A stretch of DNA of 64,000 nt from a virus. Location of the stretch: the IMG/VR virus record IMGVR_UViG_3300035660_000002, positions 32,001-96,000 of that record; one strand, written 5' to 3'. Shown in pieces: positions 37,292 to 37,948 of the stretch. Below the pieces are notes generated by a model, which was not told where the DNA came from, ran no database searches, and worked only from the letters and a program-made list of their open reading frames with translations. Each line of letters begins with the position of its first letter. Position 1 is the stretch's first letter. Position numbers and translations under genes: made by a program.

Positions 37292-37948
37292 TGGTTTTCA
37301 TAATCTCACCGGTCTGCATTGCATACTTGGTTTTCAAATTGACGTCGGCTTGCATTATCTATCTGGGTTTCATTTCGCTTATGGCTTGCAAATCATTACT
37401 GGGTTCCATTCGTCCAGTGGCTCGCATTGACAACTTGGTTTTCAAATATTCGACGGCTCGCAAGCTGTATATGGTTTTCATAGTGTATGTGGCTTGCAGT
37501 ACTTTACTGGTTTTCATGTTTCAAAGGGCTTGCATTCATTGCCTGGTGTTCAAAATTAGCTCGGCTCGCAATCGTTCTATGGGTTTCGTATATAAAATGG
37601 CTTGCATGCCAAACACGGGTTTCAATTGTTTCATGGCTCACAAACTCTTTTTGGGTTCCACTCTTGCCTTGACTCACATCTACTAACCGGGTTTCAATTC
37701 TTTCGTGGTTCGCAGCCTAAGACAGGGTTTCACTACCATATTGGCTCGCACGCATGCCTTGGTTTTCAGACCCAGGGTGGCTTGCACATCTATGTTGGTG
37801 TTCACATTTCGTCTGGCTCGCAAGCAGGACATGGTTTTCATAAGCTATTCGGCTTGCATCCTTCTTTTGTTTTTCATTGTTCACTTGGCTCGCACCCTCA
37901 TTTTGGTTTTCAAGCATCATGCGGCTCACAAACTGTCAATGGGTTTCA
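37292..37948 (-). repeat. TIGR-type dual-repeat guide-RNA array: 18 units of 36 nt
   Basis: 19 copies of TG(A/G)A(A/C)(A/C)CCA-like repeats at exact 36-nt steps (37292+36n) alternate with 18 TG(C/T)(G/A)AGCC(A/G)-like repeats, each separated by a unique 9-nt spacer. Confidence 0.92.

Follow-up and report, generated by a model that had tools for sequence, protein, structure and literature searches.

A dual-repeat TIGR-TasA guide array in an uncultured sediment phage, with TTGAC words in its spacers that probably reflect chance

In all likelihood, the repeat-rich region directly following the tasA gene of an uncultured sediment phage serves as guide array to an ordinary dual-repeat TIGR-TasA system, and the TTGAC words found in three of its spacers are there by chance. 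The phage genome, 133 kb in length, comes from sediment metagenomes; all positions given below refer to the window, that is, the whole stretch of 64,000 nucleotides that was analysed. A first-pass annotation of the array had taken the TTGAC words for an enrichment of the sigma-70 -35 motif and had proposed that the system works as a natural programmable repressor aimed at promoters of the host, of competing phages or of the phage itself. A genuine promoter signature in the spacers would have been the first clue to the natural targets of TIGR-Tas systems, which are called an open question by both Faure et al. 2025 (PMC12045711) and Xu et al. 2026 (10.64898/2026.09.09.750476).

The features of the locus on which the argument rests are the following:

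36536..37228, minus strand: Mg-chelatase / YifB-ComM-like gene, C-terminal half only (Pfam PF01078, PF13335)
37292..37966, minus strand: predicted dual-repeat TIGR array (period-36 repeat families, register table)
37337..37345, minus strand: spacer A of tigRNA 18, RNA sense ACGUCAAUU, with TTGAC on the plus strand
37427..37435, minus strand: spacer B of tigRNA 15, RNA sense AGUUGUCAA, with TTGACA on the plus strand
37931..37939, minus strand: spacer B of tigRNA 1, RNA sense UUGACAGUU, a TTGAC spacer
37962..38918, minus strand: predicted tasA, 318 aa, Nop domain only (translation, profile, fold)
39042..39953, minus strand: gene upstream of tasA, with a C-terminal cell-wall hydrolase (Hydrolase_2) domain (Pfam)

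The array consists of 38 repeats of 9 nt (19 edge and 19 loop repeats) alternating with 37 spacers, likewise of 9 nt, and its period is exactly 36 nt. Read along the minus strand, each unit runs edge, spacer A, loop, spacer B, edge, so that 18 complete 36-nt tigRNA units are followed by one trailing half unit. The array starts directly after tasA, its degenerate first edge repeat overlapping the tasA stop codon, and several repeats within it are degenerate. On the minus strand, the consensus of the loop repeat is UGAAAACCA and that of the edge repeat UGCGAGCCR. Both repeat types carry UG (box D) at their 5´ start and CCA or CCG (box C) at their end, the box D/box C layout of loop and edge repeats in dual-repeat TIGR arrays being that described by Faure et al. 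2025 (PMC12045711). No family in Rfam matches the array. Contigs from two other sediment studies are letter-identical to the phage sequence over positions 37265-37415, 37610-37772, 37729-38055 and 37820-37973, which excludes an assembly artefact as the source of the array. In three further sediment runs, the contigs were either identical or too fragmentary to reveal any turnover of spacers.

One unit is peculiar in its two spacers. In tigRNA 1, spacer A (37949-37957) and spacer B (37931-37939) have the 7-mer TGACAGT in common, and spacer A is a 9-nt palindrome except at its centre; the predicted 18-bp target of tigRNA 1 is consequently a near-perfect inverted repeat. Similarity of A and B within a unit was rejected as a general rule, the 1,567 adjacent spacer pairs of the family arrays described below being no more alike than expected by chance. 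Against that background, the likeness seen in tigRNA 1 stands alone.

The protein encoded by tasA, whose ATG is preceded by GGAGGG, gave a single Pfam match, a weak one to Transposase_20 (IS110-type). A profile built from it and 24 homologues, compared with the PDB, matched TaTasR (9mty, E 1.4e-29) and SpTasH (E 1.6e-21) and, weakly, the IS621 recombinase (E 2.7e-3), with the TasR and TasH matches spanning only the Nop and coiled-coil part. The AlphaFold (AF2) model is all-helical (pLDDT 81) and its best Foldseek matches are again TasR and TasH, with E values from 1e-10 to 1e-6. Neither an HNH nor a RuvC nuclease domain was detected by Pfam, by the PDB profile or in the AF2 model. Since the matches are confined to the Nop and coiled-coil part and both nuclease domains are missing, the protein is, judged by sequence and modelled fold, TasA, i.e. 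a Tas protein without nuclease. On this point the first-pass annotation was right.

The N-terminal 60 residues of TasA form a charged tail, helical or disordered. At residues about 230-265 (window 38124-38230), the protein contains an insert of ~30 residues with two Cys and one His, which is missing from most of the 24 aligned relatives. An HNH-like fold was considered for this insert and rejected: the model, of low confidence here (pLDDT about 60), shows coil and one helix, with no beta hairpin or beta-beta-alpha arrangement. Two residues in the C-terminal loop, Y301 and H310, are invariant in 25 homologues; in SpTasH, a C-terminal Tyr/His pair, Y289/H296, of a kind conserved in dual-repeat systems, processes tigRNA (PMC13421893). 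Sequence identity of TasA to most relatives found is about 30-38%, the best value, 52%, being reached on a 1.2-kb contig. Near relatives were found neither among GenBank phages by megablast nor in IMG/VR by a single-protein search.

Downstream of the array, the Mg-chelatase / YifB-ComM-like gene begins 63 nt past the last repeat and has its own ribosome-binding site, AAAGGAGAA. A terminator scan of the minus strand gave no terminator-like site behind the array (36536-37291), nor any that would separate tasA, the array and the downstream gene. With no terminator after the array and the next gene so close, the array appears to sit inside an operon. At a distance from the locus, the window also contains a tRNA-like gene (13121-13197, minus strand) to which ARAGORN assigned no anticodon.

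Among described systems, the dual-repeat TIGR-TasA systems, e.g. FpTasA of Flavonifractor plautii (PMC12045711), likewise combine a solo-Nop Tas with a phage carrier. They show the same alternation of two 9-nt repeats, each with UG as box D and CCA as box C, the same 9-nt spacers A and B, the same 36-nt unit and the array adjoining tas. The phage system departs from them in the ~30-aa Cys/His insert, the charged N-terminal tail and an array without terminator, none of which amounts to a difference in kind. A nuclease-free Nop protein with coiled coil, the layout of repeats and spacers next to tas and the box C/D ends, all sequence-level characters of a dual-repeat TIGR-TasA system, are present, with Y301/H310 as the candidate processing pair, and by these characters the locus is a member of the group, if a fairly divergent one.

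SpTasH of Salicola phage CGphi29 and TaTasR (PDB 9w03, 21kl, 9mty) possess a homologous Nop and coiled-coil core and likewise use a dual-repeat tigRNA whose tandem spacers pair with both DNA strands. They carry an N-terminal HNH or RuvC domain and cut DNA, whereas the phage TasA has neither domain. MbTasA and dead TasR (10.64898/2026.09.09.750476) are nuclease-free like the phage protein, and their guide-dependent reversible repression is also its proposed function. Dead TasR (PateTasR, CsTasR) belongs to stem-loop systems, while the phage locus is of the dual-repeat type; moreover, repression by MbTasA and dead TasR has been measured, on a reporter gene and cysG in E. coli, which are neither natural targets nor specifically promoters, while the phage TasA is known here from its sequence. 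A functional likeness, and only that, exists to PAM-dependent Cas1-Cas2 systems, which also block transcription or replication by cleavage-free RNA-guided DNA binding and are often found on mobile elements. Their proteins are unrelated, they use a single long spacer and need a PAM, and they have the spacer-acquisition genes Cas1-Cas2 that are missing from TIGR loci.

Extrapolating from the family, the phage system would operate in the following way. The tasA gene and the array, with no terminator-like site between them, would be co-transcribed on the minus strand, and a TasA dimer would grip edge and loop repeats at their box C/D ends. Cuts within the edge repeats would release 36-nt tigRNAs from the precursor; probably Y301 and H310, both conserved, would make these cuts, as analogy with Y289/H296 of SpTasH (PMC13421893) suggests. 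Each ribonucleoprotein would then unwind and bind an 18-bp site without cleaving it, and transcription or replication would be blocked at the bound site. Because TasA has no nuclease domain, binding alone, with such a block as its consequence, is the outcome to be expected.

That a nuclease-free TasA may serve as RNA-guided repressor is an idea already in the literature. Faure et al. put it forward in 2025 (PMC12045711, Discussion). For MbTasA, Xu et al. 2026 (10.64898/2026.09.09.750476) showed binding in EMSA and repression in E. coli, with a reporter gene or cysG as the guided target; catalytically dead TasR repressed in E. coli as well. Dead TasH represses from promoter or ORF alike (10.64898/2026.08.11.744272). 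Since published repression works from within an ORF, a preference for promoters is not needed for silencing. The general part of the first-pass proposal, a programmable repressor, therefore agrees with what has been published for TasA; its sole new element is the targeting of promoters, deduced from the TTGAC count, and this element is unsupported, for reasons given below.

TTGAC or its complement does occur in three spacers, at 37337-37345 and 37427-37435 on the plus strand and at 37931-37939 on the minus strand, as had been noticed. The expectation of roughly 0.4 such spacers is also sound (we obtained 0.33-0.37 from spacer composition, from genome 5-mer frequency or from a uniform model), but the spacers number 37 and not 36. 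Nominally, three or more TTGAC spacers have a P of about 0.005, and exact TTGACA is present in two spacers against 0.09 expected (P 0.004). Among the 37 spacers, however, six reverse-complement 5-mer classes (GTCAA, CGAAA, AATGA, TGACA, AAACA, AAAGA) reach at least three counts, and letter shuffles of the spacers yield on average 6.3 classes at this level, at least one such class appearing in 99.97% of the shuffles. As the motif was picked after reading the spacers and six 5-mer classes are equally frequent, the count is not meaningful.

Neither does the word behave as a promoter mark in its genomic setting. Non-coding DNA accounts for 8.8% of the phage genome and is reached by only 6 of its 84 TTGACA sites; TTGACA does not, then, mark promoters in this phage. 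Both the position and the strand of TTGAC differ among the three predicted targets. The possibility that TTGACA acts as a promoter inside the array was examined separately and rejected, since on both strands a -10-like hexamer is missing at 16-18 nt downstream, and a promoter scan of this part gave no hit.

Related arrays provide a replicate of the count. An alignment-based search of IMG/VR yielded 80 loci encoding TasA relatives (L001-L080), and 71 of them carry period-36 arrays with repeat types and orientation to tas as in the phage locus. In the orientation of tas, the repeats of these arrays are AGAAAACCA and AGCGAGCCA or AACGAGUCA. From 59 loci, 1,484 unique spacers entered the replicate set. 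With both strands counted, TTGAC was observed in it 19 times, against 14.1 in within-array shuffles (z 1.3; rank 90 among 512 classes) and 15.5 predicted by its frequency in flanking DNA, while exact TTGACA was found in 3 spacers with 3.2 expected. Poisson limits on the count of 19 correspond to a fold change of roughly 0.8-2.1, compared with about eight-fold in the phage array; an eight-fold enrichment would predict more than 100 occurrences among the 1,484 spacers. Evidently, the family does not share the TTGAC signal. The supposed excess over chance fails both the look-elsewhere correction by letter shuffles and the family replicate, and chance is what produced the three TTGAC words, the spacers being short and AT-rich; they are no sign of promoter aiming.

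The spacers that had been described as TATA-like fare no better. The three quoted examples mix strands, and a match to TATAAT at five or more of six positions is present in 1 spacer of the phage array where 3.5 are expected. In the family, too, such hexamers are scarcer than expected (64 against 94), a depletion that holds relative to mononucleotide shuffles only and may reflect avoidance of the TA dinucleotide.

Targets were sought according to the published rules, by which spacer A pairs with one strand of a 9-bp segment and spacer B with the other strand of the segment next to it, a gap of 0-2 bp being tolerated and a flanking motif not being required (PMC12045711). An 8-nt 3´ overhang has been reported for cleavage by TasR, which would fit a strand that reads B and then the complement of A. 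We searched with all 18 tigRNAs in this geometry and in the reverse one, at gaps of 0-2, using re-paired spacers as controls. In the phage's own 133-kb genome no site with at most one mismatch exists in either geometry, which lends no support to the suggestion that the guides are aimed at the phage's own promoters. Two sites have two mismatches (control 0.75) and eight have three (control 12.6); in total, 10 sites with up to three mismatches compare with 13.35 for the re-paired controls.

The wider searches gave a similar picture. No matches to 775 tigRNAs of the relatives were found in their own flanks, and 736 tigRNAs compared with all fetched loci and the phage genome produced no perfect and six one-mismatch matches, where a uniform-base model predicts ~4. 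Exact IMG/VR stretches, in the two geometries respectively, numbered 7 and 2 for tigRNA 1, 11 and 4 for tigRNA 15, and 0 and 3 for tigRNA 18. These come to about 18 independent sequences, with the matches mostly inside long ORFs. Because matches occur in both geometries, of which only one can be real, they are probably not true targets. The mapping of predicted targets proposed by the first-pass annotation thus returned nothing at up to one mismatch in the phage itself and a few exact IMG/VR matches, mostly within ORFs. Targets falling at random in coding DNA were to count against promoter aiming; these matches do so only weakly, probably not being real targets. Most likely, the targets are to be found not in the phage itself but in foreign DNA, of the host or of rival mobile elements.

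Three other accounts of the spacers have to be weighed. According to the first-pass proposal, the guides would be enriched for the sigma-70 -35 box since promoters, those of the host or of rival phages, are what the system occludes, in the manner of a natural CRISPRi. The three TTGAC spacers, two of them with exact TTGACA, would carry weight with their low nominal P (0.005 and 0.004) if the -35 box had been the single prior hypothesis; AT-rich promoter targets could also give spacers of the AT-rich composition seen here, and repression by a TasA homologue directed to a reporter or cysG (10.64898/2026.09.09.750476) and by dead TasH (10.64898/2026.08.11.744272) agrees with the idea. The motif was, however, chosen post hoc from among 5-mers of which five others are equally frequent, it is not enriched in the 1,484 related spacers, and -10-like words are depleted in the phage array and the family alike. 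TTGAC lies at varying positions and on varying strands of the three predicted targets, the exact IMG/VR matches of the three tigRNAs are mostly within long ORFs, and silencing from the interior of an ORF makes a promoter preference dispensable. We therefore consider promoter occlusion very unlikely as an explanation of the spacers, and it is highly improbable that the TTGAC and TTGACA spacers are real guides against -35 regions of host or rival phages, with TasA as a promoter-occluding silencer; if true, this would be the first natural target class for TIGR-TasA. It is extremely improbable that some guides, though mismatched, bind regulatory DNA of the phage itself and so serve autoregulation or timing, for example through tigRNA 2 acting on the start of tasA. 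Read as B followed by the complement of A, the target predicted for tigRNA 2 has the appearance of a Shine-Dalgarno motif followed by ATG; at 38916-38935, where tasA has its ribosome-binding site and start codon, it fits with three mismatches and a 2-nt gap. In addition, matches with exactly four mismatches in non-coding DNA of the phage number 30, against 15.0 +/- 4.0 for re-paired spacers. This excess is gone at three mismatches (1 against 1.2) and at five (103 against 116), is not seen in coding DNA, is equal in the two mutually exclusive geometries and has no counterpart next to 57 related arrays, whose flanks give 22 such matches against 26.2. We rejected it as a signal and read it as a fluke. 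Moreover, matches with up to three mismatches are at control level overall, and central mismatches abolish the activity of TasR and TasH (PMC12045711; PMC13421893). The target of tigRNA 2 fits two further gene starts as well (window 41213 and 43580), at four mismatches each, the overall number of such matches being at chance level.

It is likewise unlikely, though to a lesser degree, that the array is a drifting and duplicating non-coding relic whose spacers have no current targets and whose composition is set by mutation and RNA-protein constraints. Consistent with this account, our searches of the phage's own genome, of the relatives' flanks, of cross-matches and of exact IMG/VR stretches revealed no targets, neighbouring units in the relatives have like same-type spacers that point to unit duplication, and several repeats of the phage array have degenerated. 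Against it, tasA is intact, with a conserved Tyr/His pair and conserved Nop residues, box C/D ends persist in the repeats across 18 units, and the array is letter-identical wherever contigs of the two other studies cover it. Simple drift to genome equilibrium is also at odds with the base composition: GC content is 36% in the spacers of the phage, 47% in its genome, 48% in coding and 44% in non-coding DNA, and 53% at third codon positions.

In the preferred reading, a guide array of an ordinary TIGR-TasA system, two properties of the spacers deserve attention. The AT-richness is general: spacers are more AT-rich than the flanks in 51 of 58 related arrays, with a mean GC content of 41.0% against 48.7% (Wilcoxon P 6e-10). 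In RNA sense, spacers are also about 60% purine. Possibly, AT-richness and purine bias facilitate ATP-free melting of the 18-bp site, or make hybrids of purine RNA with pyrimidine DNA more stable. The second property concerns the arrangement of similar spacers. Spacer pairs within a Hamming distance of 2 occur in the related arrays 29, 33 and 16 times at lags 2, 4 and 6, and only 4, 6 and 2 times at lags 1, 3 and 5; the phage array has one like same-type pair, spacer A of tigRNA 8 and of tigRNA 10 (Hamming distance 2). This large surplus of like same-type spacers, at distances of one to three units, over like spacers of different type suggests that tandem duplication of whole units, 36 or 72 nt at a time, is how the arrays grow. 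In the two main TIGR papers, the terms "AT-rich" and "GC content" and, with respect to TIGR arrays, "duplication" are absent.

With TTGAC at chance level in the phage array and no signal in the approximately 1,500 related spacers, the idea of promoter aiming is not worth pursuing on present evidence. The AT-rich composition of the spacers and the similarity of same-type spacers in neighbouring units are modest leads, on the constraints that act on the guides and on the way in which TIGR arrays grow.
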